From Azolla caroliniana (Eukaryota > Plantae > Polypodiophyta), in NCBI GenBank assembly GCA_043228905.1, contig JBHGNT010000005.1, forward strand, positions 16,616,001 to 16,680,000: a stretch of DNA of 64,000 bases, in the 5' to 3' direction. Below the pieces are notes generated by a model. The model was not told the DNA's origin. It searched no databases and saw only the letters and a program-made list of their open reading frames with translations. Positions 661 to 61,324 of the stretch are shown here, piece after piece (positions within the stretch are counted from its first letter, which is position 1; each line of letters begins with the position of its first letter). The position numbers and the translations under genes were made by a program.

Positions 661-993
661 TTGTAGACACAGTGGTTCGGAAAGTAATTGGATGTTTTAA
701 TTAATATTCAAAATAGGTATTGCATATTTGTATATTATTACTGAATGTAATATCGACATGCCATAACCAATACAATAGTTAATATAACACTACAAATACA
801 GAAATAGGTGATATTACTGTTTGGGAAAGACATTGCATGTGTAAGGAAAAATATTTTTGGTTAGACGCTGGTAACTACCACTGTCTGGTTCAGGATACAC
901 TTTGTATTACATTATGAAGAATGCTTCATTAATAATGAATGCCCATGTTTATTCATTTTAGAACTTATACCCTACCTGCCTCTCTTGGAACAG

Positions 994-12900: not shown

Positions 12901-15900
12901 TATACTTAAGATTGAATAATGAAACCATTTGGGAATACATATAAGGTGGACTTGTATCGTGCACCTTTGTACCTAGTTGCCCTTTCTGGATCATGATGTA
13001 CCTTCATCACCTACCACACAACTGATTTAACTTCAGGTATGGCACAAATTGCAAAGGTACTAAATGATTATCCCAAGCAGCTCCCACTGCCCATCCCCAT
13101 GGCTCACATTACATGAATCTACCTTTGAATGTAAGAAATGCCATTGATCTCTTACAATTTGGGAAGGTCCAACATCGTAATGTGTTGGTAGGTGAGCACT
13201 TTATCTATGCATGTGATACCTCTCCCCCATTTGGCATATCTCTTTAATAGAGCTAAGCGTTAAAGTTTTCCTACTAGCTGAACAGAAGATTCCATTATAC
13301 CAATCTTCAAGAGTGGAGAATAATGATTGGCCATTACTTGACTAAACTATATGGCTCAATCCTAGAATCAGAATTGGGAGTGTGGACATAGAGGAATGGT
13401 TTTTGAAACACGTTCACAATTTTGAATCCTTTAAGCCCTTACTGAGGAAGGTCCAGAGCCCATAAAAAAGAGGATTTATTGCTGCTTTCTGGAAAGTCTT
13501 TAACACTGCTCATGCAGTGTCTAGAAGCTCTTGGTGTCCCTGTAGATATGCATTGGTACACATGATTCTACACATATCTAGGAGTAACATTCATGGGGCC
13601 TTGTTTCTCCTTATGGAAAAGGCTACTTGTGCTATATTTTGTAATCCTTGGTGCTATTGAAAGACATTGTGCACATATGCAGTTTCGAGAGCCATGAACT
13701 AAATTGTGACTATTTTATACACTTGTGACACTGAATCTTCTCTATAGATAAAGAACCGGATCTTCCGCCATTGCAGGTGATTCCTTTGGCTCAGCGACCT
13801 CTCCATTCTTGATCGATCTGGGCTAGACATCTTTCGAAGGCAAAAATTACAATATATCTGATTTGAGAATCTTACATGTATGATGACGAGATTCTTTACA
13901 AACATCTTAGTCTATTTCAATTTACTTTTTTTGCGTAGTTACATTTATTTACTTTGGTCTGTCGTTTCTCAAAGACAAGACAACATTTCAAGATGTAATA
14001 TCTTGTTTGGTCTTATAGGCCATTTTGGCATCTTAAAAGACGTTAATATATCTTTCTTTTTTCTACAAAGTAGAATCTGAGGACTGAGTCTTCATAAGAT
14101 AAGTAGCTGGACAGATTTTGAGAGACCAGTGTAGATGATTGGTTGCATGATAAGGAGCAAAGCATGGGTGACAATAATACAATCACAATCACAATCACAC
14201 AAGCTCATTAACAAAGAACAATCACAACTTTCTTGAAGGGCTATACAAATGGTCTTCATAACTTGCTCATGCTACAAGTTAATGAAGGGCTATACAAATG
14301 GTCCGTTGACAAGGACATTCTTGCCACCCTTGTCATCGACAAATTAAAACTATTATCTCTTGCCATCACAGGTGCTTTCCTCACTTCTTCTAAGTTCTCT
14401 CCATTCTGGATTGCTGGGAGAGATCTTTTGAAACCAAATTTATAATCTATTTGACTTGAGAAGCCTATATGTATAGATAATGAATTTCACTTGTCACTTT
14501 ATACTTCCTTATAATGTAACTACATTTATTTTGGCTGTTGCTTCTAAAAAATGAGACAACATTTTAAGATGTTATCTCTTGTTTGGTCTTATCGTCGATT
14601 TTGGCATCTTAAAACACATTAGCCTATTTTTATTTCTGACTTAGTCATATCCAAAAATGGATGGACCATTCAGGCCATAGTCAAATGGTGGAATTGCATC
14701 TATATCCATGCAATGTATATGGAATCAGTCTAGAAGAATGATAGGAAGTAATGCTTCCGAATACCAATATATTCTTATGGAAAAGGAAAGTGTTTTGCTT
14801 AGTATTCAGCCAGCACATTTTATTCAGGGTCTTGAGCTTCGAGAGTTGGTCTTCTTGATTGTTTTGAAGGTGTTTTAAGATATCTCATCTGCATCTTTTA
14901 TTCCAACCTGTAATTTGATCAAGATCTCTAAATTCACGGTGCATGAATATCCTTGAATAATAATGATGAGTCCAAATGACTAGCTAGTCTCTTTGGACTT
15001 TGCTGATTTAATATATGAGATTGTGTGGATTAAAGATGTACTTCGTTGTTTTCTTGATGCTGAAAGTGTCTGGAAAATAGGTCTATGTCTTTTCCTAATT
15101 GTTATTCGTCTTGATTCTCTACTGCTGTGCATGTGTATCATTGGGCTATAACTCCACCAGTATAGCTAGTCAAATCTGGATCCATAGCTGGATGATTGTG
15201 ATGTTTGAGATGGAATGCTGTTGATTATATTTGTCAGACCAGTCAAGTGTTATTCATTGAAGAGTAGTAAAGATCTTTAGTCATTTTACGTAACGTCTGG
15301 ATTTCTCATACAAGTTTATCATTTTTGAGATATTTGATTTCTGATTGTTACAATGCCTTTAATGGATAATGCTATTTGTTTCAACATTATTTTCAAAGCT
15401 TTTGAGATGTTTGACTTCTGATTGTTACAATGCCTTTAATGGATAGTGCTATTTGTTTCAACGTTATTTTCAAAGCTAAGGACAATGTTATTGGAACTGG
15501 TCCACTGATGGATTTCTAAAATTCTTCTTTTGAAGTCGAGCATATGTACAACAGTATAGATGCTATTATTCACCATAACCATGCCTGGTGCTAAGTGCAA
15601 TTTCTTGTTCTCATTTTCTTTTTTTCAGTATCAAAATTGTTTGCGCAAGTTTTATCATAATACAGAGCCACAAATACTTCTGTATCTGGCACGAACATAT
15701 TATGAAGCCGAACAATGGCAAGACTGCAAATGTTCACTCCTACGTGCAATCCACCTTGCACCTTCAAATTATATGCTTAGGTTTGATGCAGCAATTGCCA
15801 TGCAGAAATTCTCCACTGCAACCCTCCAGAAAGAAAAACGTACTGCTGATGAGGTCAACATACATCAATTTCTTTGAAGCTGGTTAATATCACTCACTTC

Positions 15901-17408
15901 AACGCTCATGGCATGCATCTCTAAACATAATTGAAAATTGTGTATTTTTGTTATTCAGGTCCGACAATCAGTATCAGAGCTTAAAAATGCTTTGCGCCTT
16001 TTTAGTCAACTATCTGGGATGACTGGTCATCATTCTCATGGTTTCGATGGCAAGAAAATTGAGATGCATGTAGAATATTGTAAGCATTTACTGGAGGCTG
16101 CAAAAGTTCACCTTGAGGCTGCAGAGCGTGAGGAGCAGCAACATAAACAAAAACAGGAGGTTGCGAGGCAACTTGCAATGGCGGAGGAAGCGAAACGAAA
16201 AGCCGAAGAAGAACGGAAGATAGAGGTTGTTGCCTGTGAACTGTTTTGGAAAATATTGTTTTTAGTTGATAGATTTGAATCGAGCTCTTATTTTTCATGT
16301 TTTGCATATATGTGTGGAAGATGGAAAGAAGGAAACAAGAAGATGAGATGCGAAGGGTCCTTGAAGAGCAAGAGAACTTTGAACGGTTGAAGGTAATACG
16401 CATGATTCTTGATTTTTCATGAAAAACTTAAATTAATACTGGTGACATGCTGAATTTTTGGCCTCCCTAACCTATTTTTCAATTTAAAGATAAGGAATCA
16501 TATGCATATATAAATACATTCAGTTAAGCATACACATGTAAATACATATATCTGTTATATGCTAGCGGAGAATCTGATTCTTTCCTGGGCTCTATGGCAT
16601 CCCATTGTGTAGATTTTTTCAGACTGGTATTATAAATTGAATTGAATCATGAATATATATTTCTGGTAGATATACTGGAAAAGAGGAAAATGACAAATCG
16701 ACTAAAGTATATGGATCTTTATTGGAAGCCAAACCGAAGAATATTGTGTTTTAAAACTAGGGGATTATTGATCAAATTAGAAAAGAAAAACTCGGTGTAT
16801 TCTATGTAGGACATTATAGAAGTTATACTTGCATCACAATTCTGTGATTATGTTTCAAGTTGAATTTGGAAAACTCTCTTTCTTCTATAATTACATGCAC
16901 ATTCATATTTCAGGAGGCATGGAAGGTAAAGAGCCGCGATAGGTTCCAGGTGGATGATAATGAGGGTGATGGTGGCATGTCTGAGAAGAAAAAGGAGAAG
17001 AAGAAACGAAAACGTGAGAAGAAACAGAAGTCTTATTCACTAGACAAAGAACAGGAGGTCGAGGATGATGCAAATGCCACACGGTACTCATCGGATGATG
17101 AGAATGCTGGTACTCAGAATGCAATTGCAGCTGCTGGCCTGGAAGATACTGATGAAGAGGATGAATACAATGAGGAACGTGACACACCAATGGGGAAGAA
17201 ATCAAGGAAGCAACAAGCTCTCTCTGAGTCTGAAGATGATTTTGCTCCTCCTGCAAAATCAGCTTCAGGAAAGGGACGAGATGAAATTGAAGAAGCATTT
17301 GGAGCTAGTGATGGTGAAGTAGGGGATAACCACCCACAGGGGTCTGATAGTGGGAATGAAGAGCTTGAACGAAAAAGGCGAATGTACGATTCAGAAAGTG
17401 ATGAATAA
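994..17408 (+). CDS. CTR9: CTR9/VIP6/ELF8 homolog, TPR subunit of the RNA polymerase II-associated PAF1 complex; 5' exons lie upstream of the window
   Basis: 21 GT-AG exons join in frame: 994-1188, 1288-1388, 1472-1525, 1596-1712, 2718-2781, 2861-3075, 3370-3454, 3767-3867, 3950-4042, 5510-5578, 5666-5758, 5847-6116, 6275-6355, 11751-11909, 11984-12079, 12452-12553, 12656-12763, 15629-15853, 15959-16225, 16321-16392, 16914-17408 (TAA). Peptides recognised as plant CTR9: [71 protein letters not shown], and an acidic/basic tail with AAAGLED. Confidence 0.95.
1900..2215 (-). mobile_element. LINE 3' region fragment (same family)
   Basis: AAGCAAGGGAAGCACCTGTGA through ATTGCCCAATCTACTGTAACCCCTTT is collinear with 6860-7100 and 8175-8420. 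Confidence 0.75.
4865..4945. repeat. about 30-bp tandem repeat, roughly 3 copies
   Basis: CTTGTAA(C/T)GGTTGAGGATGACAA(G/A)GTTGGC repeated. Confidence 0.8.
6495..7865 (-). mobile_element. RTE-X-like non-LTR retrotransposon copy A (5'-truncated, internally deleted)
   Basis: Collinear with copy B; TTTC tail near 6500; internal tandem duplication at 6677-6880; ORF2 C-terminal remnants (HCWYAEMQQWF, EEHYVCHC). Confidence 0.85.
7895..10062 (-). mobile_element. RTE-X-like non-LTR retrotransposon copy B (degenerate ORF2: RT plus C-terminal CCHC), with an inverted 5' segment
   Basis: RT motifs IYCCFVDFRKAFDTV, GVKQGCPLSPTLFGLYID, LLYADA, KTKVMVF. C-terminus SSHQLQIEVGRY...ERICQLCH...ESEEHYVCHC. (TTC/TTTC) tail at 7897-7921. 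Clade assignment is an inference from motifs. Confidence 0.88.
10063..10866 (-). mobile_element. RTE-X-like LINE copy C (RT fragment)
   Basis: KQGCPLSPTLFGLYID...LLYADD; closely similar to 9007-9795. Confidence 0.88.
10876..11668 (-). mobile_element. Deleted Ty1/copia remnant: short 5' LTR (11467-11668), PBS and RT fragment
   Basis: On the minus strand, LTR TGTTG...TAACA is followed by PBS TGGTATCAG (tRNA-iMet type). RT remnants FEMSDLGHLHHYLG and YQQVVGCLIYLCITRPDI. Confidence 0.8.
13100..14065 (+). mobile_element. Old, multiply deleted LINE copy (same RTE-X-like family)
   Basis: NVRNAIDLLQFGK at about 13128-13167, IYCCF at about 13475, 3' end GGTCTTATAGGCCATTTTGGCATCTTAAAAGA plus TTTC tail. 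Confidence 0.75.
14290..14640 (+). mobile_element. Degraded LINE 3' UTR fragment (same family)
   Basis: TTATCTCTTGCCATCACAGGTGCTTTCC and TTTGGTCTTAT...TTTTGGCATCTTAAAA match the family 3' UTR. Confidence 0.65.
15323..15478. repeat. about 78-bp tandem duplication in a CTR9 intron
   Basis: TTTTGAGAT...TTTTCAAAGCT occurs twice with few mismatches. Confidence 0.85.
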
Positions 17409-19236: not shown

Positions 19237-21204
19237 CATGCTACCGTGTATAGAATTTGTTGTAAATTCCTAAGTTCAAGGTTGTTCCTTGGCTTTAACC
19301 CGTGAATATTATAATTATAGATTGACATATTCGCATTCATGGGGTCTCCCCCACAAATACATACGAATACGAATATGAATGCATGAAAAAATATTCATTT
19401 AAAACAAAAATAAAAGTACTCATTCATAGAGCTGCGAATAGAGAACAACGAACAATGAACAACGAACAATGAATTGCAAATATCAAACAGTGAACAATGA
19501 ACAGTTGTGTATGCGCCTACATCCTTGCCTCCACCTGCACTTTGTTCCTTGCAAATTAGGGTTTGGTTGAAATTCACCCCACTTTGAAATCAGTCAGTCT
19601 CTCTTCTCATCTCATCTATTAGAGAAGGCACAACCATGGGTTTAGTTTATGAATGTACTCAAACATATCATAGAAGAAATAAACCACATTAGATGTAGAA
19701 CATATCATGTGTTAGGAAATAGGTCCCTTTGGATGGGTAGAGCACGAGTCGGGTCGGATGGAGTCGATTAGGCACTGACTAGAGAGACAAGCCGAATCAG
19801 TTGATAGCTAACTCGATTGAGGTTGAAAAATTGATTGATCGATAACCGAATCGGCTAAAGGTGATTGGGTTATATTTGTAAATAGGTTATGTCGCATCTA
19901 TTTGGGCCAAAGTTGTTAATAGCCTTAAAGTTGTATTAGTATAAATACAACTCGGGCAAATCATTATAAAAAAGATGGACATGTACAATTTGCATTGTTG
20001 TAACTAGTGCAACAATGTGTGTGCAACTAGAATGTAAGAGAGAGAGAGAGAGAGTTGTAACTTTGTAGCCGTCTATCAGACGAAGAAGAGTTACTTAAGG
20101 TTATTGCCTTAGAGTTTCTTATTTTTGGTGTATTCCTCTTACCTTAGTGACTCGGTTGGAGTTTGTGGACTCCTGTGGTTTTTCCCTTTTAGGTTTCCAA
20201 GTAAAATCTTGTGTGTCTTTAATTTCTACTTTGTCTATTGTCTCGTGGTTGTCTTGATCTCTGCACATCTCACTCGCACATGTGGACCGGTTGTGGCCGG
20301 CTTCATATTTTGCATTATTCTCAACATAATGCTTGATGAAATTAGAGGAATATTTATGCAAAGATAGACAATGCTACAATCATCGTTGCATGCAACCGGT
20401 TTTATTTTGCATCCAATTTGGAGAGAGAAAATTCAAGATATTGATGACAAGGCCAACACAAGTTGGATGGAAACTATTATGTGTTATACTAATGGTGGTG
20501 TATATCTATGTGGTGTTTTATTGGATGAATTCTATGCTTATAGAACTCAAGAAAAAGTACGTTTCAAGTTCTTATGGAAAATGATTCGAATAGAATGCAT
20601 AATGCAATTAAGGGGTGGGAAACATTTGGAGGATGCACTTGAAAATTAAAAAGACTTGCAATTTGTGTGCTTTCTCAAGGTTCATTTGTATCTTCTTGTG
20701 AAAAAAATTGGAGCACATTCTCATTAATATATACCAAAGAAGAAATAGATTGACTCATGTCATGTTGAGAAATTGGTTTATATACATACAAATCATTGTC
20801 TCATTAGAAGAAGAATAAGGGAAAGGGGATTATGCCTCATTGAAGTAACATTAGATATGATCAATAAAGATGATGATGATGAAAAGCTTCTGAGAATGCA
20901 AAACCAAGATAATGATGAAGTTCGTGAGGATATTATTGATGAGCTTGAAGATATGGATGGTGAATATGATAGTGCATAGACTCGTAAATTTAGAAGAATT
21001 ACTTAGAAGTTAGAAGTCTTTAACTACAACTTTTCTTATGTCGGTGTGATTTTGGACCCTATTTCTATTAATGAGTAATTGTTCTTTTTTTAGTGAATTA
21101 AATTTATTTTTTTCCAAAACGAATGGTTTTATAATTTTCTTGGGGCCATTTCTTATTCTTGAATATTGCGAATATCACGCATGAAGAATATCACGAATAG
21201 CATG
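19237..21204 (+). mobile_element. Degenerate hAT DNA transposon (transposase C-terminal remnant about 20330-20979), interrupted by a solo LTR
   Basis: LHATGFILHP motif and hAT dimerisation-domain remnants (LAICVLSQG..SSCEKNWSTFSLI, VEKLVYIHTN). Imperfect terminal inverted repeats CATGCTA; GAATA subterminal repeats. No 8-bp TSD seen. Confidence 0.7.
19710..20326 (+). mobile_element. Solo LTR, copia family X
   Basis: TGTT...AACA ends; TSD TCATG/TAATG (1 mismatch); TATAAATA near 19940; terminus shared with the LTRs at 25216, 30020 and 43174. Confidence 0.85.
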
Positions 21205-24181: not shown

Positions 24182-25215
24182 ACACCTCTTTCGCTGCACA
24201 GAACCACACCTGATTCTTTACATGGTATTAGAGCGATTGGTAGCTTGATCCAAGCCCATTTGTGTGTGTTGTGCTTACGCCAACGTTCACGAAGAACCGA
24301 CCGATCACTGTAGCAGCAACCTTGCATAGCTCATATCATAGAGAAGAAGAAATCACAAGTCGACCATCATGAACACCAATGTGGGAAACTCTCTCCCCAA
24401 CGAAAAACTAGACAAAAATAACTTCGCATCTTGGGAGTACAAGATGCACCAATACCTTGTTGGTCAAGGCTATTGGAGTTACATTGAGGGAGTACAAGAA
24501 TCGCAACCCTACCCAACATGGGAGCAAGCGGCAAGTAGTGTGTTGTATAGCCTTGCATCATGCGTTCATGATATCACATGCTTGGCTATATCTGAGAGGC
24601 CAAGATGCTGAAGGAGGCATGGGGAAACCTGAAAAAGATCTTTGCGGCCAACATGACTGCATAGAAACTTCAACTCCGTCAAGACTTGAATAACATTCAA
24701 CAGAGGGATGTGTCGATTGGAAGCTACACCTTGAAGATCAAGGAGCTGTGCGACTCCCTCAGGTCGATCAATGTCAACATTGACGACGATGAAATGATGC
24801 AAATATGCCTCAACAGCCTACCACCCCGCTTCGACACAATAAGGTCGGCCATCCTTGCAAGGGAGATTCCTTCCTCCTTCTTCAATCTCCAGTCGATGAA
24901 AATCACGTCCAAACGAGGGGAAACGTATACAAGAAGGACAAATTCTCTATTCGAACTCAAATGGAGCGAGGGGACATGACTATGGAAGAAGTGGTCAATT
25001 TGGCCAAGGCCGACACAACCAAGGGTAGTCCCATGAGCACAATTTCTAGTACCACCAAGACGTCTCGAACATGCGAGGAGCGCCTGGTAGAAGGGGGAGC
25101 AATCATGCTGGACCAGGCCGACAAAACAACTCTGTTTAGTGCGGATATTGTGGAAAATTCAGCCACCACGAGGCAGAAAAAGTGAGTTGGCTTTCACAAG
25201 CAGATTGTTAGTTTT
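23868..25215 (+). mobile_element. Ty1/copia element B nested in A (LTR 23868-24222, PBS, degenerate gag)
   Basis: TGTTG...TTACA then TGGTATTAGAGC; gag EKLDKNNFASWEYKMHQYLVGQGYW. The LTR contains a (CT)n(CA)n tract at 24091-24180. Confidence 0.85.
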
Positions 25216-26055
25216 TGTTGAGGATCCTACCGGACACAACCAGTTAACACTCGTGTGTGTATATGGGTGCGAAGATCAAAGTTAACAATACACAGATAAT
25301 AAAAGACAGAAGTACAGAAACACAAGATGTTTTACATGCAAAACTCGGAAAGGGAAAAACCAAAAGAGTCCACAAACTCCAAGAAACGAATCACTATAGT
25401 GAGAGGAATACAAGGAGACTCGTAGGCAACGACATTGAGCTCGTCTTCATCTAACAAACGGCAGTACAGTTACAACTCTCACTCTCTGTGTCTGTCTCTC
25501 TCTCACTCACTTAGTTACAGAGGTAGTTACTCACTATAACTTATTTAACAATGATCATTACCCACTTTCATAACTACTTGCCTTAACTATATTTATACTC
25601 ATATGCACATATGGCTATTTACAAATATAGCCCAGTTGGATTCGGCCGATTCATCTATCAACTGAATCGATTATCGTTCGATTATCAATCATTTGATTAT
25701 TCGACCTCGACCGAGTTACCTATTGAGTCCATCCGATTCGACTCATGCTCTTCCAATCCAGAGGGACTAGCTCTCCCAACAAACTCCCCCTTCACTCCAG
25801 TATGGTGTGCTTCGTCAATCGGAACCTTTGTCGGCATGCATTCATCTTCTTTGTTGGTAGGACCTTCGTCAGCATATCCGATCCTTTGTCGTTCATATGG
25901 ATCTTTACTAGAGCAAACTCATTTTCTTCTACTTGCTCTCAGAGCCAATGGTATCTCCTCTATATATGCTTGGTACTTGAGTGATATGTGGCATTCTTCA
26001 CAAGGTGGATGGTAATTTGGTTGTTACAGTAGAGTTAGAATTCCTCCTGCCAAAT

Positions 26056-26550
26056 TTTTAGCTCTCCGATGAACTCTGAAAATGATAGCGTACGGAAGCT
26101 AAGACAATCGGCTCGTCCGGATAACAACAGACAACAGAAAACAGAGATGAAGGTTTAATGGAAACCTTAAACACACATACACGGGAGAGACGGAGAGAGA
26201 GCAGAACAAAACTCAATTTCAAAAATAATACTCTGTACATACAATGTACTTAGAGAGAACTTTTATACAAGTCCTTAAAAGGATTAACCGAAGTACTAAC
26301 ATGTACTTCAATGCTCGTACGAGCGACTGACACTAACTGCAAGGAATATGCCTACGTACTAGGCTCGAACCGTATGCCTCCAACGGCCTACTGGTTCACA
26401 CTATTCCGGAGTACGATCCGGTTCTCCAGTCCGGCTCTAGGTTCCAAATACCGATCTATCTAGACACCAATCCGATTATTCGTTCTGTTTACCGATCCAG
26501 CTCTGGCTTATTCAGCCACTGCGGATCCGATTGAGCTTGCCCGTTCAACA
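26056..26550 (-). mobile_element. Solitary LTR-like insert within the copia C RNase H
   Basis: About 495 bp interrupting the RNase H frame (IIWMKE...QEEF). Minus strand starts TGTTGAAC; minus-strand TATAAAA near 26265. No TSD. Confidence 0.6.
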
Positions 26551-29500
26551 AACTCCTTCATCCAGATTATTTCCTTGCCGGCTTCTGCAGGAGCCATGTA
26601 CTCGGCTTCCGTGGTTGATAACGCCACGGCCTTCTACAACTCGATTTCCATGAGACAACTCCCCCTACATATGTCATTACGTATCCAAACGTGGATCGGT
26701 TGGTATCTACATCAATCAACATGTTCGAATCAGTATAACCTTCCATTATGGGGTTACCTGAGCCGAATCAGAGGCACACACTCGAGGTGCCTCTCAGATA
26801 CCGAAGTATCCATTTCACCACAACCCAATGTTCTCTTCTGGGATTGCTAATATACCGGCTGACGACTCCGACAACGTATCCAATGTCCGGCCTTGTACAT
26901 ACTACTGCGAACATAAGGCTTTTGACGACTGAGGCATAGGGGACCTTATTCATCTCAACCTTCTCCACTTTCGATTCCGAGCATTGAATCCTCCAACATA
27001 CAACAAGAGGATGAGAAAGTCTCTTCCATCATATTTCTTAACAAAGACACAATGATCAGCTTGTGTCTTGTTGAACCTGTGATCCACCATGAAGGATTAG
27101 AATTTCCGGTACCATTGCCAGGGGAGCTTCCTTCGGTTTGTATAAGCTCTTCCTTAACCGGTTTAGGGTGAGTAGGTAAAGTAGGTGAAAAGACCGAGCA
27201 TGAAAGGGTTAGATCCCCAATACTATCAACACCAGATTCATCTTCAGCATGATGCACGACCAGTACAGCAACGACACTACTGCATGAACCCCAATTACGC
27301 GGCCAAAGTAAAGGACGAAATCTACAAACTCCTTCGGGTAGGGTTCATTCAGCCAGTTAAATGGGGAACATGGTTAAGCCCTATTGTTGTCGTCACAAAG
27401 AAAAATGGTCAAATACGGGTATGTGTTGATTACCGCAAGCTGAATGCAGCAACCATCATGAATGCCTTTCCTCTCCTGTTCACAGATGGGGTGCTTGATG
27501 CGGTGGCCGGCCATGAATGCTATAGTTTTTTAGATGGGTTCAACGGGTATAATAAGATCCACATGCACCTTGATGACCAAGAAAAGACAACATTTGTAAC
27601 CGAATGGGGCGTTTTCGTGGCAGTAGTCATGATGTTCAAATTAAAGACGACACCGGCCACCTTCCAATGAATCATCACCGAAATTTTTGACGATTACATT
27701 CTGGCCTTTATGCAAGTCTTTCTCGATGATTTTGCCGTGTACGACCAGTAGATTAAGCACCTCGGGTACTTACGCCTTTGTCTTGAGTGATGCCAGCAAG
27801 CTCGGCTAAGCTTAAACCCCACCAAATGTGTATTTTACGTGTCGAGCGGCACTCTACTTAGACACATTGTCAACCGCGACGGAGGTGCTATGGACCCCAA
27901 CAAAGTACAGGCCATCTTGAATGCTCCAGCCCCAGACCACATCAAAAGCCCTTTGTTAGTTTCTAGGCCAAATTAGGTGGCACATTCAAATGTTGCATTA
28001 CCTTGCCGAATTCGCCACACCCTTGCACGCAGCGGTCCATCGGGTTCCATTTCGATGGTCATCAACGCAAGAAGACGCTTACCGATCCCTTGAGGTAATG
28101 CTATCACACGCACCAGTGGTGCAACCTCCCGATTGGTCACAACCCTTCCACGTCTTTGTGGATGCGTCCGACGTGGCCATCGGGAGTGCCCTCATGGAAA
28201 AGATGCCTCCAAATTGGTATCGATCAACATACTATGCTAGCCGACGTCTCTCAACAACCGAGAAGAATTATTCGACAACGGAACATGAGGCACTAGGCAT
28301 GGTATACAATATCACAAAATTTCGGCACTATCTGCTCGACAGAAAATTTACGTTCCATGTGAATAACTCGGCGTTACTATACCTCATCAACAAGCTGACA
28401 CTAACTGGCCGATTGGAATGGTGTATGTTACTCCTCCAGGAATTTGAATTCGACATACACCAATGGCCAGGCGTGCAGCATATGGTAGCAGACTACCTAA
28501 GTCGGCTCGAATCGGGGGAACCAACGGAAACGGTTTATGATGATTTGCCCGATGCCAACCTCTTCGGCATTGTTGCGGCCATACCACATACCGAAAGCGA
28601 GGATGAATGGATAAATGACATGATGTAGTTCCTCAGCATCGGACTTCCACCCGACCACCTGACCTTAGATGCCAAGAAACGATTGGTAGTCCACAACCGA
28701 AACTGTTGCCTGTTAGCGGAAATAGTCTACCACAAGGGCTCGGACGGCATCCGACGCCGCGTAGTGCGACAATTTGAAAAAGATGCGATCCTACGGGAAG
28801 CACATTATGGAATCACCGGCGGGCACAATGCCAGAGATGCCACGACACAAAAAAATTGGCAAAGTGGGTTATGGTGGCCCACAACGAAAAAGGATGCCCA
28901 CGAATTCTGTAGACAATGTGATTTATGTCAACGCATGGGTCAACCCTCCAAGTAACCTGTATGCCTCACCAACCGATTCTCCCATTAGAACCTTTCCAGA
29001 AGTGGGGATTGGATTTCGTTGGTCCATTCAAACTGGCCACGTCTCAAACCGGCAATAAATACATCATCGTGGCCACCAATTATTGCACAAAATGGGTCGA
29101 AGCAAAGGCATTGTGCGACAACACAGTCATGTCTACCACCAAGTTCATTTATGAATATCTATGGTGTCAATTTGCCTATCCAATCGAGCTCATTAGTGAC
29201 CAAGGAGGTCACTTTCTCAATCGACCTATTTGAGAACTCACCACACACTATGCAGTAGTACATAAGAAAAGCACGCCATACTATCCATAGGCAAACGTCC
29301 TAGCCGAGTCAACAAATAAGACACTACAGACCATCCTCAAGAAGATCGTGAATGAAAACCGAACCGATTGGAACGACAAGCTCCGTAGTGCACTCTGGGC
29401 CTACCAGACGGCGTTCAAAACAAGTATCAGATCCACTCCTTTTTGTCTGGCTTTCGGGTGGGAAGTTGTCATGCCAATAGATTTCCAGGTGCCGAGTTTA

Positions 29501-30019
29501 CGAGTCCAAATTACCGAACGATTGCCCAATCCCTTTGTTGGTCAGCAGCACGGTCGCGACCAGCCCGAGGTGGGTGAAACGGAGGATTTCGGGGGCCCAT
29601 CACCTCAATTCCGGTAATTACTCTACCTACTGCCCGAAATTGTATCCTATGTAAAAAATAAAAATAAAAACCGCTAACTGGAGTATTTAAAGAGCATGCA
29701 CGCCACGCAAGAAAAGAAAGAATAAACGGTTCTAGAGACGTGTGGTATTAAAAACTTATTATGGCAAGATAGATTTGGAATCCAGGGCACAAGGCCACGT
29801 CTCGAGAAATGAGATACCTACAAAAAGGACACCACATGCATAACACTCACTCACACACAGATACACAAAGCCCTCAAGCTCTCTCGTCTTCTGCACAAAC
29901 GTTATCCCACTCTCAGACTCTATGCACAGAAGCTTTCTCCCAATCCTTGTCTATGTACCCCCATACTCACTCCTCCTCTTCCTCTCTTGAAATAATCATG
30001 CCACCCGAAGTGTCCAAAG

Positions 30020-30577
30020 TGTGCGGAATAGTGCTCGGCCACAACTGAGTCTCACTCACTCAATGGAAGAAAATAGAAAAATAGTAATAAGACGACACCG
30101 AGTATTAACGTGGAAAACCCTAATCGGGTAAAACCATGGGAGCCCACGGACTCCAACTATCACTATGAGAGGAAGTGTACAACTGGAGACTCAAAGGCAA
30201 CGACCTCGAGCTCTAGCTTTCCCAACCGGCGGTTACAACATAAAAGCTTTCTTTATCTCTATATCTGTATAACGATACAACACAACAACTACAATGATGA
30301 TCACAACACATAACAGTGTTGCCCTACTTATATTTATACTTATATAACTTTGGGGCTATTTACAAATATGACCTCAACGGTCACGTCTAAACATATTTAC
30401 TAATATGTTCCTATTTGTTGGTTCCTACCGGATCCGGCCGAACTCCTTCTGAATCCATCCGATCTAGTCTCTGGATACCCTCCGGATTCATCCGGTATGG
30501 ATCCTTCCTTCGTCCTGTCTGATCCGTCTCGTTTGGTTCACATTCCGATCCCATCCGGAGGGACCTATTTCCCAACA
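30020..30577 (-). mobile_element. Solo LTR, copia family X
   Basis: TG...CA ends, perfect TSD CAAAG, similar to the 25216 and 43174 LTRs. Confidence 0.92.
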
Positions 30578-31036
30578 CAAAGACCTCCACACCTGGCTAA
30601 ATAGGCACGACCTGGGCAGATACCTCTGTGCAGTGGATGCACTTCCCCACCCCGACGCGCAGGAGATCGCACGCCGAGTGCATCTTGACACCATCACCAA
30701 CAATCAAATTTGATCGGTGTTGGGCCTATAGCGAGGAGGAGAACATGACATCGAGGCTCCGCCTCTGAACATCCTCAAAGAATATTTCAGGGAGTACTCG
30801 GTGTCGGCCAAGGCGTATCAGACTCGTGGTGGGCCTAACAAGTTCTTTGGTGATCTCGCCAAATTCTTTTGGAGTTTGGTTGCGCACACGCTAACACGTA
30901 TAGCATGCCACAGAAAAAGGCAAGCATCATCATCACGCCATACAGAGGCGGTGCCATCGATTGGGGCATCATTATCGGGGAGGGAGTTTGTGCCACCTTG
31001 ACAACTTTTCAGTCAGGTAAAAGGTTCTTACTTGTT

Positions 31037-31493
31037 TATGAGAGACATGAACTAATGGAAGCATTAGATAAGGATAGAATATAGATAAATAGATAGAAAG
31101 GAGAGAGAGAAAGAAGGGTGTCGATCCACACGACCACCCCCGAGCGAAGGGATCGAGACAGACTTGAGCCTCGATCGGCGTCCCCTACCACCACCATGGC
31201 GTCGAGTCGTACCTGGTGCTGGCGCGCTCGCTACAAGAGTTGACCCACCACAAGACAAAGTCTCGACGTAGTCAACAAGATAATGAAATGAGGGTGGCTA
31301 GGCCTCTTATTTATAGCGATACCCAAGGCCCCCAGGCAAGTTCACACTTGGCCTAATGGGTTGTCGCAATCCCGAGGATTAAAAGTAATCCTCCCCTTCT
31401 TTACACTCTCGTTTAACCCTCACACTTATCCACGTGTATAGAATACTACGGTAAATTCTCACCACAGGATATTATATGGTCATGCCCGTAACA
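31037..31493 (-). mobile_element. Solo LTR (different family)
   Basis: Perfect TSD TTGTT; right end ...GTAACA; left TG mutated to TA; minus-strand TATAAATA near 31310. Confidence 0.8.
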
Positions 31494-34400
31494 TTGTTGT
31501 AGCACATTACTTAGTTGTGCTTTACACCACCCCCCCCCCCCCCCAATCCAGGACCACATCCCGCCGAAACCTCACCCTCCCTATTCCACCCACCCATGCG
31601 AAACGCCAACGAGCTCTTTAGTTAGCTCAGGAGGAATGCCATGATGACACACCTGCCCGAAACCCTGCATCGCCGCAGCCGATACCAAATGCCAAGACCT
31701 AGGAAGTTGAAGACAATATCACCATAAGAGGGCACAAAAAACATAAGTTATCTGCCCTAGTGGAAAAACCAAAACTAAAAATGGCCAACCTGCGGTCGAA
31801 CCATCGAGAGGACACTCAGACAACCACAGGCAATAGCCAAGAATCCTCCGTGGAGCAATCGATACGGCTCTGAGAAGAATCTGCGAATACCTGCCAAGAA
31901 ACACCACAGGTTGCAATGCCATAACGAAGAAAAAACTCAAGGGGCCGGGAACCTGCAACTTGTCGTTGCTCCCTACAAAACCATTGCGATCGCCACAGAC
32001 AAGTCCTTGTCCTTCACAGGAACTACGAAGCAAGGACAACCTTCCCGGTTCTTGGAGGAGGAAGTCATGACCTTCAAGGATTTGCCCGCTGAGTCCTACA
32101 AGCTCGGTGTAATTTTACAACACGGCACGGTGTACGAGCTAATCGACTTTCTCGCTCGCCTCCAGGTTGTTGCCGCGGCACGCATGGATCAAGACCATGT
32201 TGAACAAACAGATGGTCCAGCGGGCATTAGCAAACGAGCTCGAATCGGACGAGGAGTCGCAGCTACCAGACCCCAACATGGCCTTGGTCGAGGTTTACCA
32301 TGAATTGGAGAAACCAACCCGCGCTGCGAAAGACATGGTCGTCGACAACAAACAAGCGTGCATACAAGCCAAATTGCCAACGGAGTTATGGTAGACCTCG
32401 GAAAACTGCTTGACCAAGCTTCAACAACGGCTCCAAGCCAAATTGCCCACGGAGTTATGGTAGACCTTGTCGGCTTACCACCCCCCGCTTCCAATCTCGT
32501 CAAAATATCTAGATTCTACACAAACGGACGACACCAACACTCCCACATTGATGGATGTGTCCACTCAAACCGAAGAACTAACCAACTTGACCACGATCAC
32601 GTTAACGGTCATCGTCCCAACCCGCAACTACGATGAAGAGCTCGCGGCCCAAATGGCGATTGTTGAGAAGGCCAAGGAGTGATACGAAATAGCCAAAGCT
32701 GAAGCGAACCAATTCCGGGCACAAGCCACAGTGTGAGGCCGAACTCCAACAATTGCTAGAGGCACGGACGACCCAACTCTAGGACGTAGAGAAGAACGTT
32801 GTCGCGACTCTCAAGGCCGTGTAGGACCTTGCATCAGCAAAGTTAGCGGAAGCGGAGGAAGAGTATCAAAAGACATCTCGCCAAAAACCTGAAGAAATTG
32901 ACTCCTTGTAGAGCAAACTCTCGGAACTCCAGGTCCGCTCCAATCGGCACATTCACCTGTTAGACGAAACCAAGGAAGCAGCAAGACGTAGTAGCAGAGT
33001 CCCTTCTTCAGCTACAAATCTCCGCGACCCTAGAACTCAAACGACAACAAAACCGTTATATGCAGGAGTTCGCCGACAATTCAGACTGTCTCCTCTAGCG
33101 CTACGACTAACATACGAAGGAGATGGAGGTAAATCTTGCCAACGTTACCACGTCGTGCAAGATCCTCAAAGTCAAATTCCAACAGGACACGGCGAAGGCC
33201 AAGGAGGACTAGACACCCTCCGTGTCAAATACGAAATGGGCAAAACCCAAATCAAGGCAATAGTGGCAAAACACCAGTTTAAACTGAGTCGCAAAGTCAA
33301 AGAGGCACTCGCTCGAGCCTGGAATGAATGGGCGGCTCAACCAGCCAAATTACAAGTCTTTTGAGCAGACGCCGAAAATCGGAGAAAAGAGGGTCGCGAT
33401 TTCTACAAGATGGATGAGAACAACATTAAGATCCTCCGCGAAGACCTCATCGAGGAATTCCACGCCCTAGTACAAACACACACCACGACAATCAGACACC
33501 TCCTCGAGGAATTCAACGACGATCAGACATTGCTAAGACTGGAATCGGAAGCCTATGAACGCAAGCGCATCCAAGGTAAAAATGAAGCAACAATAGCCGA
33601 ACAAACATCAACAAGCCCCAAGACCGAGGAAGCAGCCCAGGAGCAGAAAAAAGAACAGGAAATACGACTGAGAGTAGACACCGAACAAGGCATTGAACAG
33701 GCCACAGAACTCCAACAGGAGGCGCCAACTCCAACATCCACGCCGGTCACTCAAGATCAACAACTCGACGTAACGAGCGAGTTACACGCCGACATATGGC
33801 CAACTAGAGAGCCATCCCAAACCCTGACGCAACCACCTACCCTTGTGAGTACCAAGCCAACGGCCGAAGAGGCGACCAATCTCCAAACCAAGTCATCACA
33901 ACACCCAGAGGACATCCTTGCATTTTTGGAAGAAGATTGAAAGTACCATAGTAATGTTTTGGCTTCTTATCTTTTCGATTTTAACCTTTTGCAAGTTTCG
34001 GAGTTTGGTTTGACGTGCGAAGCCATTGTCCCACGGGCGTGCCAGGTGTTATCCATGGGACAAAGGGCATGAAGTGTGAAATTCATCTAAAGAAACGAGT
34101 AGGTAAAGTAGGTGAAAAGACCAAGCATGAAGGGGTAGATAAAGGAAATACGCATAGCCATGAATGGAGGCAAAAAACGGGACATCGCGCCGAGAGGAAA
34201 CGAAAACTATAAAAAGCGAGTAGCAACAATAGGAAGGGCGGGGGGAAAAAAGAGAGGTGTTTATATATCTTTAAGAGAGGGAAATACTCCTATTATACTA
34301 GGGAGAGAGAATTTTTATATGTATGTCTATTGTTTTCCTGTTAAAGGGAGTGAATAGAAATTTCGGCCGTGAGCCGTGTAATCGTTTACGCAATAATCTT

Positions 34401-35750
34401 ATAATACACAATTGTGGGTCTATCTTTCGTGTCATTAAACATTCATCTTTACTGCTGGGTTTTCTGTCCAAGTTATACGTATAAGTTGTAAGACTGGTTG
34501 TGGTCGGCCATTCTCATAGACGATCTGCCTATTCGGCCCTATTTTCCTTCCTACATAACCAAGCTTCCTTGACTCAATTACCTAGGAAGTAATCGAAGGT
34601 GTATCTCCGAAGAAGAGATAACACATACCAGGTTCTCCTTTTCTTTCTCCATAAATCCCTCTGGTTGGTGTATGTAGATTTCTTCCTCTAAATCTCCATG
34701 CAAGAAGGCAATTTGAACATTTAACTACTCAAGTTCTAGGTTCATGCTGGCCACAATGCTCAACACCGTCCGTATCAATGCCATCTTTACTACCGGGGCA
34801 AATATTTCATCGAAATCTACACCCTTCTTCTATTGAAAGCCTTTTACGACAATTCGGGCTTTGTATCTAGGTGGATTCCCGCCATCTCCCGACTTCAATT
34901 TGTATACCCACTTATTTCGGAGTGCCCTTTTCCCTTTCGACAACTCGGTCAACTCATACGTGTGGTTCTCATGCAAGGAATTCATTTTGTCTTGGATGGC
35001 ACTCAACCGCTTTCGGCTGTGGGTATCGCTCTTTGCTTCCTCGAAGCTTTCCGACTCCCCCTCATTGGTTAACAACACATAGGCTCTCTCTCAAAGGGTA
35101 TCTTCTGCCTCCATTCGAAGCAGTTGGCTCCTGTTCGGCCTCTTTAGTCGGCTCTTCATCCGAGTCGGATTCGAAACCTCGTTCAACCAACTGTCTCCTT
35201 TCAACCGGTTGCTCTTGTTTCTTAGTCGGCCCTCAGATGCCGATATGCCACTTCTTTGTCGAACCACACCCTTTATGGTATGTCACCTTCCAGTGGTACC
35301 AAGGGAGACCTATTTATTATGTAAATGATCATCATCAACACCTTAACCTAGTATAGCTTCGGCAATTTAGCATGTGCTAACATACATCAGACCCTTTCCA
35401 TGATAATATGGTTCATTCTCTCGGCTAGCCCATTCAACTTCGGCGTCTTTGGCACTGTGTACTCAAGCCGAATACCTTGAGATTGGCAGTACTCCTCAAA
35501 TTGCCCTTGGTATTCTCCTCCGTTGTCTGTCCGGATCGCCTTCAACTTCCGTCCGGTTTCTCTCTCAACTCTTGCTTGAAACTCCTTGAACAAGCTCAAC
35601 ACTTGATCCTTCTTCTTCAACACATAAGCCCACAACTTACGACTATGATCGTCAATAAAGGTAGTAAGAAGTCCAAGAGGTGAGTTTGCCATGACAAACG
35701 TAATGGTAAATACAAAGGAAGCAATGATCATGAAAACATGATAATGGGGG

Positions 35751-36110
35751 TGTGGTGGCATCAAATATCACGAATGGATTAGGCCCAATATAGACTTTGG
35801 TTGTAATGGTATGTACACATGTGTATGTGTATGTTTTTAGCTATAAGAGTATGTACACATGTGCATGTGTATGTGGGCGTATGTATGTATGCAGGTATGT
35901 ATGTACGTATGTATGTGTGTGCGTGTAGAGGGCAAACTCCCTTTAAGGATATTCTTGTAATTTTAGATAATCAATACAAGTGCTAAATCGACTTTATTTG
36001 TGTGTAATTGTTTGTTTTTCGTAATCGGTCTTGTCACGAGCTCTAGGTAAGAGTTCTTTGTCACTTTGCGTGTGTCTGATTCGGGTTAAGTTTGTTTGTT
36101 CATTGAGATC
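35751..36110 (+). mobile_element. Possible LTR remnant
   Basis: GGGGG tract then TG start; TGTA-rich simple repeats; U5-like T-rich end. Boundaries uncertain. Confidence 0.3.
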
Positions 36111-42049: not shown

Positions 42050-43679
42050 TCCGGAATTTGTTGCACATCTTTCAACACAAGTTAGCACCCGGTTGAAGTT
42101 AACAAGCACACAGCTCCAATACTGACAATTCGGCATGCTCCTTCATTTCCCATCTTCACAAGACTGTGGTCTTCGATTGTGTATGATGAGAAGTATTTTC
42201 AATCGGGGGTAAAGTGGAACGACACTCCAAAGTCAATCACCCACGTGGTTTCATCGTTGACAAGGTGCACTTCATTCTACTCACTGATCAGTAGCAATTC
42301 TTCCTCACTTGTCGCGATAGTTGAGGTGCTTTTCTATCTGAAATCTTCTTTGGCTCCGCACCATTAGCTCCCCCTTTCTCTTTTTGGAAGTGTCAACAAT
42401 TCTTCTGGAAGTGTTGGCAATTCTTCTGGAAGTGCCCAGGCTTCCCACGATAGAAGTAGGTAGGCCTCCCCCTAAACTTCGACCTCGTCCACGACTTTTC
42501 CCGGTTCTAGGGACTTCTATTCTAGCCTCTTCCCCAGTTCATGTCGCCTTCTGTGACTAAGGCCTTCGGGTCGGTTACAGATTCTCTGTCTTTCCAGCGA
42601 GCTTCCTCATTTAGCAAGCTCGACTTCACTATCTCTAGGGATAGATGTTTCCCGTCTGGTCCGGCATTGCCCAAAGTGACAATGAACGTCTCCCAACTGT
42701 CCAGAAGGGATCCTAGCAACAATAGCGCTAATACCTCGTCAACAAGAAGTACTTCTAGAGAGGTGGTTTGGTTGATCAATCCTTGGAAGGCATTCAGATG
42801 CTCTACCATGTTGGAACCATCGTGATACCAAAGTCTCAGAATCTTCCGAAATACTGAGACTCTATTGACAACATTTTTGTTCTCGAACATAATGTCGATC
42901 TTCTCCTAGAGGACATCCACCTTGGTCTCTTCGTTGAAGTTGTTATATAGACTCATGTCTATAAAACATCTAATGTAAGTTGCTGCCTTCAGATGCATGA
43001 CTTCCCAAGTCGATGAATCAATCTTGTCAGGCTTGGTCTTACAGTATTGCACTGGCAACCATAAGTCTTTGTACACCAACATGTCTCGCATCTTCGACTT
43101 CCACATAGAGTAGTTGGAGTCGGTTAACTTGAACATTCCTCTGAGATGTCCATCCATCGTTCTGATGCCAATTTGTGAGGATCCAATCGGCTACAACCAG
43201 TTCGCACTAATGCATATGTGGGTGCAAAGATCAAAATAACAGAGAACATAATACGAAAGACTTAAGTACAGAGACATAGATATTTTACATGGAAAAATCT
43301 AAAAGGGAAAAACCACAGGAGGCCACAAACTCCAAACAATATTATTATGGTAGAAGGAAAAATACACAAGAGACTCTCAAGCAACAACCTTGAGCTCCTC
43401 TTTGTCAGACGACGGTTACAACAAAGTTATAACGCTCTCCTACTCTTAGTTACATAGGCCTCTCCATGTAATGAGTTGCCCTAGTTGTATTTATACTATT
43501 ACAACTTTAAGGCTATTTACAAATTTGGCCCAAAATTAGTGCGACAAAACCTATTTACAAATATGGCCATTTCTGGATACTGATCCGGATACTGGTTCAG
43601 ATCCGGTCTTTCTTCTTCCTCGAATCCAACTGATCCGGCTTGTGCTCGCTTCCCATCCGGAGGGACCTGTTTCACAACA
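42050..43679 (-). mobile_element. Ty1/copia family X, 5' half: LTR 43174-43679, PBS, degenerate gag-protease
   Basis: PBS TGGCATCAGA; gag begins almost immediately (MFKLTDSNYSMWKSKMRDML); zinc knuckle remnant; protease WVIDFGVSFHFTP. Confidence 0.88.
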
Positions 43680-60684: not shown

Positions 60685-61324
60685 TGTTATCGATTAGGAA
60701 CACGGTCTACAATTAGTCCTTCGACCTAGACCTCAAAGTGACTGTGTTGCAACGAATGGTACCGTTGTACCGTAATACTTAATGGGATACATCTTGTATC
60801 CTAGTAGCATATAAGGGAGACGGCTACAATCGAACTCCTTAGACCGTGCACTAGTAACCACACTGTCACTCACACCTACGCTCTTACGATTACGCTACGC
60901 CACCAAGAAGCACAGACACACATTAGATTAACCACAGATACGCACAAGGATAAGAGAAGATAAAACTCTATTAAGATGCGCTTTCTGCATTCAAAATTAC
61001 ACGCTACCTCTATCAGAGGATTTCTGCCCTTTATATACACAAGGTCTTTTAGCCGTTCACGCTTCACGCGTAAACCGTTTACATGCGTTACGTTTTTACT
61101 ATATTCTATATTTCTGCGCTCCTGTCCGTCGATTACTATTCCGACGGACAACACCTGGCATGCCTGTGGGACAGTGCCATGGCACGTTGGACCCACCCCT
61201 TTAATCTTCCTCCAAAAAGGCCCTGATGTTTGGTTTTGCTCTAGTGTCCGGGTCCGGGGACACGTTGTTGTGTGGTTCCACTACTTGCTCGGTAAGGCTT
61301 CCCATGGTGTCGTTGGCTTCTTGT
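60685..61324 (-). mobile_element. Truncated LTR-like sequence abutting the duplication breakpoint
   Basis: Starts TGTTATCG on +; minus-strand TATATAAA near 61031; GC-richer U3-like part toward 61324. Confidence 0.45.

Follow-up and report, generated by a model that had tools for sequence, protein, structure and literature searches.

How is the second DNA strand of a retrotransposon started when the tract that should prime it is missing? A tRNA and a polypurine tract (PPT) are the textbook primer pair of retroviruses and of retrotransposons with long terminal repeats (LTRs), and a plus-strand primer ends a few bases before U3 and has the sense of the RNA. The question is raised by a 64,000-nt stretch of Azolla caroliniana DNA (contig JBHGNT010000005.1, positions 16,616,001 to 16,680,000, forward strand; the whole of it is here called the window), in which a broken Ty3/gypsy element on the + strand ends in a 577-nt 3' LTR (TGTTATC...GATAACA, 34047..34623, +) that is preceded, across a two-base spacer GG (34045..34046, +), by a 40-nt tRNA-like cassette (34005..34044, +). 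The 3' part of this cassette, the 17-mer GTCCCACGGGCGTGCCA (34028-34044), agrees with the end of a tRNA-Arg(TCT), L082, at 17 of 17 positions with a one-base gap; the chance of its last 10 bases at a fixed site is ~2e-7, and the 30 nt ahead of the LTR contain no purine run longer than 4. A preliminary description of the locus had reported the motif, the GG and the LTR as found here, with the motif starting at 34029, one base short, and had rightly seen no purine tract. The replacement of the PPT by a tRNA site extends over the whole clade to which the element belongs; it is real, and it is unexplained by known priming.

The relatives compared are the best 80 of 415 metagenome stretches confirmed in a gag-pol alignment scan and one contig from GTDB (L081), the nearest long loci having pol DNA 70-71% identical to that of the window. 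The end of the integrase is included in 26 loci, 14 of which have at most 1,509 nt behind it and are uninformative on the 3' junction; the 12 with at least 3 kb behind it all reach the cassette, and none of them has a PPT (L002 and L005 stop inside the cassette, and L081 has a variant of it). In six contigs (L005, L012, L013, L031, L033, L081) the primer binding site (PBS), gag-pol, a large extra open reading frame (ORF) and the cassette follow each other on one strand, and relatives with open gag-pol frames (L012, L033) carry the cassette. Five other contigs, including the circular L001, have the order cassette, LTR, PBS and gag, which may come from assembly joins over a collapsed LTR. A PPT is absent from all 15 junctions, where the longest purine run in the final 30 nt is 3-4; in 14 of these junctions 2 nt separate the cassette from the LTR, and in L011 4 nt. 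A sixteenth junction row, L023, was left out because it falls within gag-pol. In two cases, purine-rich ORF ends hinted at a PPT displaced to a place upstream of the cassette, but purine tracts of at least 9 have no position in common within 300 nt, and this possibility was rejected. In 16 loci the 5' LTR has a + PBS after it, while L010 and L032 have gag with other DNA at the expected PBS position. Scans of viral contigs with an RNase H (RH) piece, with the alignments A1 and A2 and with the junction pattern found no relative.

These observations bear on the simplest explanation, that the site is a one-off, namely an inversion, a chimera, a copied-in end of the primer tRNA, or a minus-strand element with an antisense pol. 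The window copy is deleted at its 5' side and shows no PBS or target site duplication (TSD), and its junction read on the minus strand has the geometry of a PBS, which would fit an accident of this kind. Against this, the cassette lies on the pol strand in two diverged copies in the window and in 14 related loci, with a variant in L081; a + PBS is present after the 5' LTR in the 16 loci and in contigs of the window LTR; the cassette is found in relatives with open gag-pol; and it persists where the 5' PBS fits another tRNA. All three 5' LTRs with an outer flank are preceded by host DNA and not by the cassette, which is thus internal to the element. An accident of this kind is therefore highly improbable, and the internal inversion or chimera that the preliminary description had kept as alternatives are refuted, whereas many copies show the pattern it had anticipated for a genuine site, a + PBS after the 5' LTR together with a sense tRNA motif ahead of the 3' LTR; pol oriented with the motif and a PPT at the other LTR, the contrary pattern, occurs in no locus examined.

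The direct TG...CA LTRs of Ty3/gypsy elements are represented by the remnant and the full LTR of the window copy and by LTR pairs in L012 and L081. As for the 4-5 bp TSD of such elements, the left end of the window copy is lost, and the two flanks of L081 do not match, its left flank perhaps being a chimeric join. L081 (G001:C10), the sole copy from another source, has both of its LTRs (93% alike) and is complete as a gypsy element of plant type, with pol and the extra ORF in one 2444-codon frame; a clear TSD is lacking. Genes of bacteria lie to the left of it, and its contig, which belongs to a Chloroflexia metagenome-assembled genome and has ABC-transporter-like bacterial ORFs beside the element, is likely chimeric or contaminated. 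In L015, an inverted piece of related pol DNA (1-615 and 4714-5319, 75%) lies upstream of the 5' LTR.

The window LTR was also compared to Logan contigs from four sequencing runs (X1, X2, X3 and X5), which represent at most three samples, one of them possibly the source of the window. At the left junction (34016-34044), the summed depth in X1 is 28,073 against 44-53 for window-identical contigs; depth is not a copy number, but this junction is clearly common to many copies. The 40 best-supported differences all lie outside 34028-34046 (a further 234 rank below these), and most of the X1 depth departs from the window at 34023 and 34026, by letters that make the arms of the cassette's inserted hairpin complementary, this hairpin being imperfect in the window copy. 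At the right end, 7, 5 and 1 contigs diverge just past 34623, with agreement of ~0.5 in the first two sets, as for random flanks, and others continue as CA-ATT-TGGCACGCC (8 contigs in X1, 13 in X2 and 7 in X3; agreement 0.64-0.70), a continuation absent from the two contigs of X5. By these right-end contigs of three of the four runs, in which the + PBS comes five bases past the right end of the LTR, elements of this family carry a normal + PBS behind the 5' LTR and, in addition, an inverted site before the 3' LTR.

The 40 nt of the cassette are ordered as the 5' strand of a T-arm and its loop, an inserted hairpin, the 3' strand of the T-arm, the 3' strand of an acceptor stem and CCA, written GTGG(G)-variable-CGA-C/A-[4-bp stem, short loop]-T-GTCCCAC-GGGCGTGCCA; the L082 tRNA-Arg(TCT), identified with ARAGORN, ends GTGGG-TTCGA-GTCCCAC-A-GGGCGTG-CCA. 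In all 14 tails of the clade this end is matched at 15-17 of 17 positions with one base left out, and in the tail of L081 the match is 13 of 18, with no gap. Across nine subfamily representatives, identity is 92% in the 17-nt tail, compared with 26-27% for the blocks on either side. A model built from 13 cassettes (R1), the window cassette among them, was searched over 416 kb and matched 16 cassette positions (the 13 used in training and three near-duplicates) and then the L082 tRNA, which is outside the training set (E 0.0045); it also matched three 5' PBS sites on the minus strand (E ~0.5). Rfam at the gathering threshold gave no match in five loci. Another sequence, L083, fitted the T-arm pattern and was rejected as a tRNA gene by ARAGORN. 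Changes in the tail include 9 G>A and 2 C>T, both C>T being in contigs with a broken gag-pol; G>A is read as tolerated, with a G of the tRNA opposite a T in the DNA.

Both the position and the sense of the cassette are those of a plus-strand primer, and the 2-nt spacer corresponds to the place where such a primer ends. Here it is proposed, as a reading that seems somewhat more probable than not, that a second host tRNA anneals to the minus-strand cDNA and primes the plus strand at the cassette. Because the cassette has the sense of the tRNA, it can pair with it only as minus DNA and never as RNA. Minus-strand synthesis would start normally at the 5' PBS; after strand transfer, the reverse transcriptase (RT) would copy U3 and the cassette, and RNase H would remove the RNA, so that the minus DNA exposes a PBS-like single-stranded site of 10-11 nt next to a hairpin. 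With this site tRNA-Arg(UCU) would pair, possibly opening the hairpin for pairing over at least 17 nt, and RT would extend its CCA end across the 2-nt spacer into U3; RNase H would then take off the tRNA as at the start of the minus strand, and integrase would trim the ends to TG...CA. Priming in trans by a tRNA would explain the fidelity to one tRNA over 34% RT-RH divergence, the lean towards G>A and a switch of the PBS to the same tRNA. Of the dual tRNA priming suggested in the preliminary description, the anatomy is thus established, with a PBS after the 5' LTR and a cassette before the 3' LTR, and the plus-strand priming step itself is what we infer. The one-base gap was discarded as an argument against an ordinary PBS, as Ty1 and Ty3 do not regenerate their PBS from the tRNA (PMC5371799).

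The inserted hairpin brings in another possible primer. Its stem covaries, since 87.9% of 91 cells pair and 12 cells are changed on both sides, values that none of 500 shuffles reaches, and slid controls give 33-41% pairing; double changes occur in three of the seven pairs, and the numbers of double-change pairs and of pair types do not exceed those of the shuffles. The structure was drawn from the same sequences as the covariation test. A hairpin selected as a structure would suit a primer in cis, in which the cassette of the genomic RNA itself would serve as a PPT in the shape of a tRNA: after cleavage by RNase H behind CCA and refolding of the hairpin, the plus strand would be primed, with no second tRNA, from the 10-nt tail that stays on the minus DNA. 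Such a primer would have the position and spacer of a PPT and would leave the base missing relative to the tRNA in no need of explanation. It would also agree with L002 and L005, where a compensatory change of the outer hairpin pair sacrifices the tRNA match at -17, and with the choice of primers by local structure reported for the RNase H of Ty3 (PMC5371799). An RNA, however, always matches its own DNA, so a tRNA-like tail kept over the same RT-RH divergence, with G>A and few C>T, is not required of a cis primer, and L081 retains a 15-nt tRNA-like tail with CCAC beside an unrelated hairpin. Folding points the same way, the RNA folds of the + strand being less uniform than the DNA folds of the - strand, in which, under DNA parameters, 9-10 nt of the tail are left unpaired beside the hairpin in 9 of 15 copies. 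The cis primer, an option that the preliminary description had not named, is accordingly regarded as the main rival, possible and less probable.

The 5' PBS has evolved separately from the 3' cassette. At the 5' side, the TGGCACGCC type is present in nine loci, TGGCGACCAC in six and TGGCGACTCCGC in L081, whereas the 3' tail keeps one type, GGCGTGCCA (GGTGTGCCA in L081). The TGGCACGCC-type PBS complements the end of the L082 tRNA-Arg(TCT), which is not a tRNA of the host. The TGGCGACCAC PBS and that of L081 (TGGCGAC types) are presumably tRNA-Arg sites as well, and a pattern search for a tRNA behind the TGGCGACCAC PBS gave no match. The L081 site, TGGCGACTCCGCTGGGGA, is the exact complement of the inter-primer binding site (iPBS) primer 2395 as published in PMC7798630. 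In a quick RT-RH tree (55 rows, with support from the Shimodaira-Hasegawa-like approximate likelihood ratio test, SH-aLRT, only), the TGGCACGCC PBS is restricted to one subclade of 13 rows that includes the window, and the earlier branches have TGGCGACCAC, with the same 3' tail in all. Each of the six subclades for which there are data has the cassette, as does the sister branch L081 (66% RT-RH identity), and the cassette is likely older than the PBS type of the window. As the 5' PBS switches among three types while the cassette remains unchanged, the cassette is not a copy of the element's own primer. Additionally, the 5' LTR and the PBS lie 2 to 7 nt apart depending on the subfamily (L007, L009, L042, L012, L022, L081), against the constant 2 at the 3' side, and matches of the 5' PBS, apart from that of L081, extend over a short stretch of ~10-13 nt.

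The relation between the two sites also bears on a role other than priming, in which the cassette would serve packaging, dimerisation, RNA circularisation, 3'-end processing or binding of a synthetase, and the plus strand would start at a non-purine or internal site. The tRNA-like shape in the sense of the RNA would suit such a role, as would the complementarity of the cassette to its own PBS over 8-11 nt in the TGGCACGCC subclades. However, of the ten loci that have both sites, four keep the tail although its pairing with the own PBS is limited to 1-4 contiguous bases. The constant 2-nt distance to U3 suits the end of a primer and is not needed for a packaging signal, and a non-primer role leaves the absence of the PPT unexplained, with no other conserved primer candidate within 300 nt. 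This explanation is considered rather unlikely. For the proposed tRNA primer, the history of the two sites suggests that the lineage dropped the PPT and came to prime both strands with host tRNAs, two different ones in the older branches, and that the branch of the window later moved its first site to the tRNA of the second strand, a course of events that appears, by a small measure, probable.

Several points weigh against this reading. Priming is deduced only from position and conservation, and the reference tRNA, L082, comes from an IMG/VR contig and is not the host's. The 80 metagenome loci are from one assembly series, in which each deep contig likely stands for many copies collapsed together. 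The hairpin covaries intramolecularly, which fits an RNA mimic acting in cis equally well, and given this and the variable letters of the T-loop, sure pairing with the tRNA is reduced to 10-11 nt. On neither strand do the folding z-scores reach significance (-1.5 to +1.4), the excess of G>A shrinks to ~5 against 2 when independent events are counted, and L081, with a different hairpin and no match to R1, is mismatched at -7 by a C>T change.

The window copy itself is a broken non-chromovirus Ty3/gypsy element, dead, internally deleted and inserted in a copia element. Its 5' LTR is reduced to a remnant (27170..27214, +; LTR positions ~51-94), which is 93% identical over 45 nt to 34097-34140 (blastn). 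The broken pol (27200..29524, +) retains RT, RNase H and the zinc finger and core of the integrase (Pfam RVT_1, RT_RNaseH, Integrase_H2C2 and rve) and is matched at 57-74% by the relatives P0005 and P0009 (tblastn), and gag, protease and the 5' PBS are all deleted. The final 15 nt of the remnant (27200-27214) double as the pol codons MKGLD, which L012, L015 and L017 encode with near-identical letters; the internal deletion was therefore likely formed through ~15 letters of microhomology between LTR and pol. A direct-repeat remnant fused to the start of pol had been described before, ending at 27204 rather than 27214. The extra ORF (30564..33940, +; tblastn of P0002 and ORF list) has the sense of pol and the end ...AFLEED; its homologue P0002 (1011 aa) aligns to it at 30564-33937 in five pieces (31-58%). 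The + orientation given earlier for pol and the extra ORF thus holds, as does the TATA-like box CTATAAAAAG reported at about 34207, which lies in the 3' LTR at 34207-34216 (+). The extra ORF of the window is broken by at least one nested solo LTR (31033-31506, TG...CA, 474 nt, with a TTACT duplication), and other nested repeats lie at ~29536 and at 30047-30578, the latter related to 19872-20266, 25214-25628 and 43172-43679. In relatives this ORF of ~1000 aa is in sense and kept open (L012 7515-11096, L033 6958-9885, L020 3301-6123), its N-terminal domain giving way to a long charged middle part before the acidic end (...ILEEE/FLEED); it has no Pfam family at the curated cut-off, and its N-terminus gave weak leads in the atlas to PF20167 (0.88) and PF03078 (0.85).

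The flanks of the window copy belong to one Ty1/copia element on the minus strand. Its right half (34624..35767, -), with integrase and RT, was identified by Pfam (rve and RVT_2) and translation, and its left half (26500..27161, -), with RT and RNase H, continues by translation from the residue where the right half stops (...KENLV on the right side and RLRKSL... on the left). An 83-aa piece of the left half had no Pfam match, and its motifs are taken by us to be those of copia. Because the copia RT continues across both flanks, the remnant and the full LTR bound one insertion, from which the left end, gag, protease and PBS have been lost. Between the copia flank and the remnant, TTTAGGGT (27162-27169) matches neither and may be repair filler; we take it to resemble the plant telomere repeat.

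The second, diverged copy in the window (60685-61324, -) is reduced to the end of the extra ORF, the cassette and the LTR. The tail of the ORF, ...RAFLEED (61196..61324, -; translation and self-blast), is followed by the cassette (61156..61195, -), by 2 nt, as in the first copy, and by a 3' LTR of 469 nt (60685..61153, -) whose ends are 80-93% like those of L020, L021 and L024 and whose TATA points away. The ORF tail is severed by an inverted duplication of host coding DNA, 54131-56809 / 61325-64000 (2.7 kb, 99.25% identical), the inner edge of which truncates this copy and which is either a recent duplication or an assembly artefact. At 939-17408 the window also contains a multi-exon TPR-rich host gene, presumably CTR9-like, with several LINE-like RT fragments in its introns (6499-10875), and ARAGORN found no tRNA gene in the window.

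As in other Ty3/gypsy elements, the order gag, protease, RT, RNase H and integrase was found in the clade (Pfam on the window pieces and on the relatives P0005 and P0009), with a weak match for protease. The RH-to-integrase linker is 108 aa, compared with 91-98 in relatives, and the RH catalytic motifs are intact. Neither a second RNase H family (aRH) nor a chromodomain family was found in P0005, P0009 and L081, so the clade is non-chromovirus and not Tat/Ogre; of the link to Ogre/Tat proposed in the preliminary description, only the tRNA-Arg type remains. The nearest named relatives are from Riccia, Calypogeia and Adiantum, which would make a non-seed plant the likely host, and in the quick tree, which includes no labelled Athila reference, the clade stands apart from Malus, Sesamum and Abrus proteins, among liverwort-named and metagenomic ones.

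Similarly to the plant non-chromoviruses as described in PMC6317226 (Neumann et al. 2019; Athila, Tat/Ogre/Retand, Phygy, Selgy), the clade has GAG-PROT-RT-RH-INT without a chromodomain, a non-Met PBS, a size of 9-14 kb and a large extra ORF. In that account the PBS is most often of the tRNA-Arg type in Ogre (89%) and TatIII (64%); Tat/Ogre/Retand have an aRH, absent from the clade, and share with it only the tRNA-Arg type of PBS. The PBS of Athila is given there as tRNA-Asp/Asn, while the clade has three other types, and Phygy (Trp) and Selgy (Ala), both described as short and without an extra ORF, are set apart by these descriptions from the clade with its Arg-type PBS and extra ORF of ~1000 aa. 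Retand (PMC11963269) also has a long region between pol and 3' LTR with extra ORFs; however, these are antisense and contain TRP28, whereas the ORF of the clade is in sense and without a Pfam match at the curated cut-off.

With canonical LTR elements such as Ty3, in what PMC5371799 reports of it, the clade shares the PBS after the 5' LTR, a plus-strand site just upstream of U3 and the order RT, RNase H, integrase. In Ty3 this site is a PPT, just upstream of U3; in the clade it is a copy of a tRNA 3' end in sense, with a hairpin, and is not purine-rich. The segment of the bipartite Ty3 PBS in U3 pairs with the tRNA as RNA (PMC5371799), whereas the cassette is outside the LTR and would pair only as minus DNA. 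Self-priming Tf1/Sushi, Tcn1 and TAR, as covered in PMC6317226, are a precedent for the replacement of a primer by another RNA, in their case for the minus strand and here for the plus strand. The text of the same source that was accessible describes no tRNA-like site at the 3' LTR of plant non-chromoviruses. A literature search for a second, inverted or plus-strand tRNA site in LTR elements, whose coverage left out most subscription papers, gave no precedent, and neither did the literature, as far as available, on plant element classification and on Ty3.

Either of the two leading mechanisms, the tRNA acting in trans or the cis primer, would be new for LTR elements, as far as the literature was searched. 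A successful high-copy clade with a tRNA site or a tRNA-shaped RNA in place of the PPT means that the rule of paired tRNA and PPT is breakable, and it offers a natural test of how RT and RNase H recognise a plus-strand primer. Elements of this clade would be overlooked or reversed by annotation tools that require a PPT or that take the best PBS as the guide to orientation. If the proposed tRNA priming is true, both strands would rely on the tRNA supply of the host, and both ends of the element would be exposed to control by tRNA fragments.

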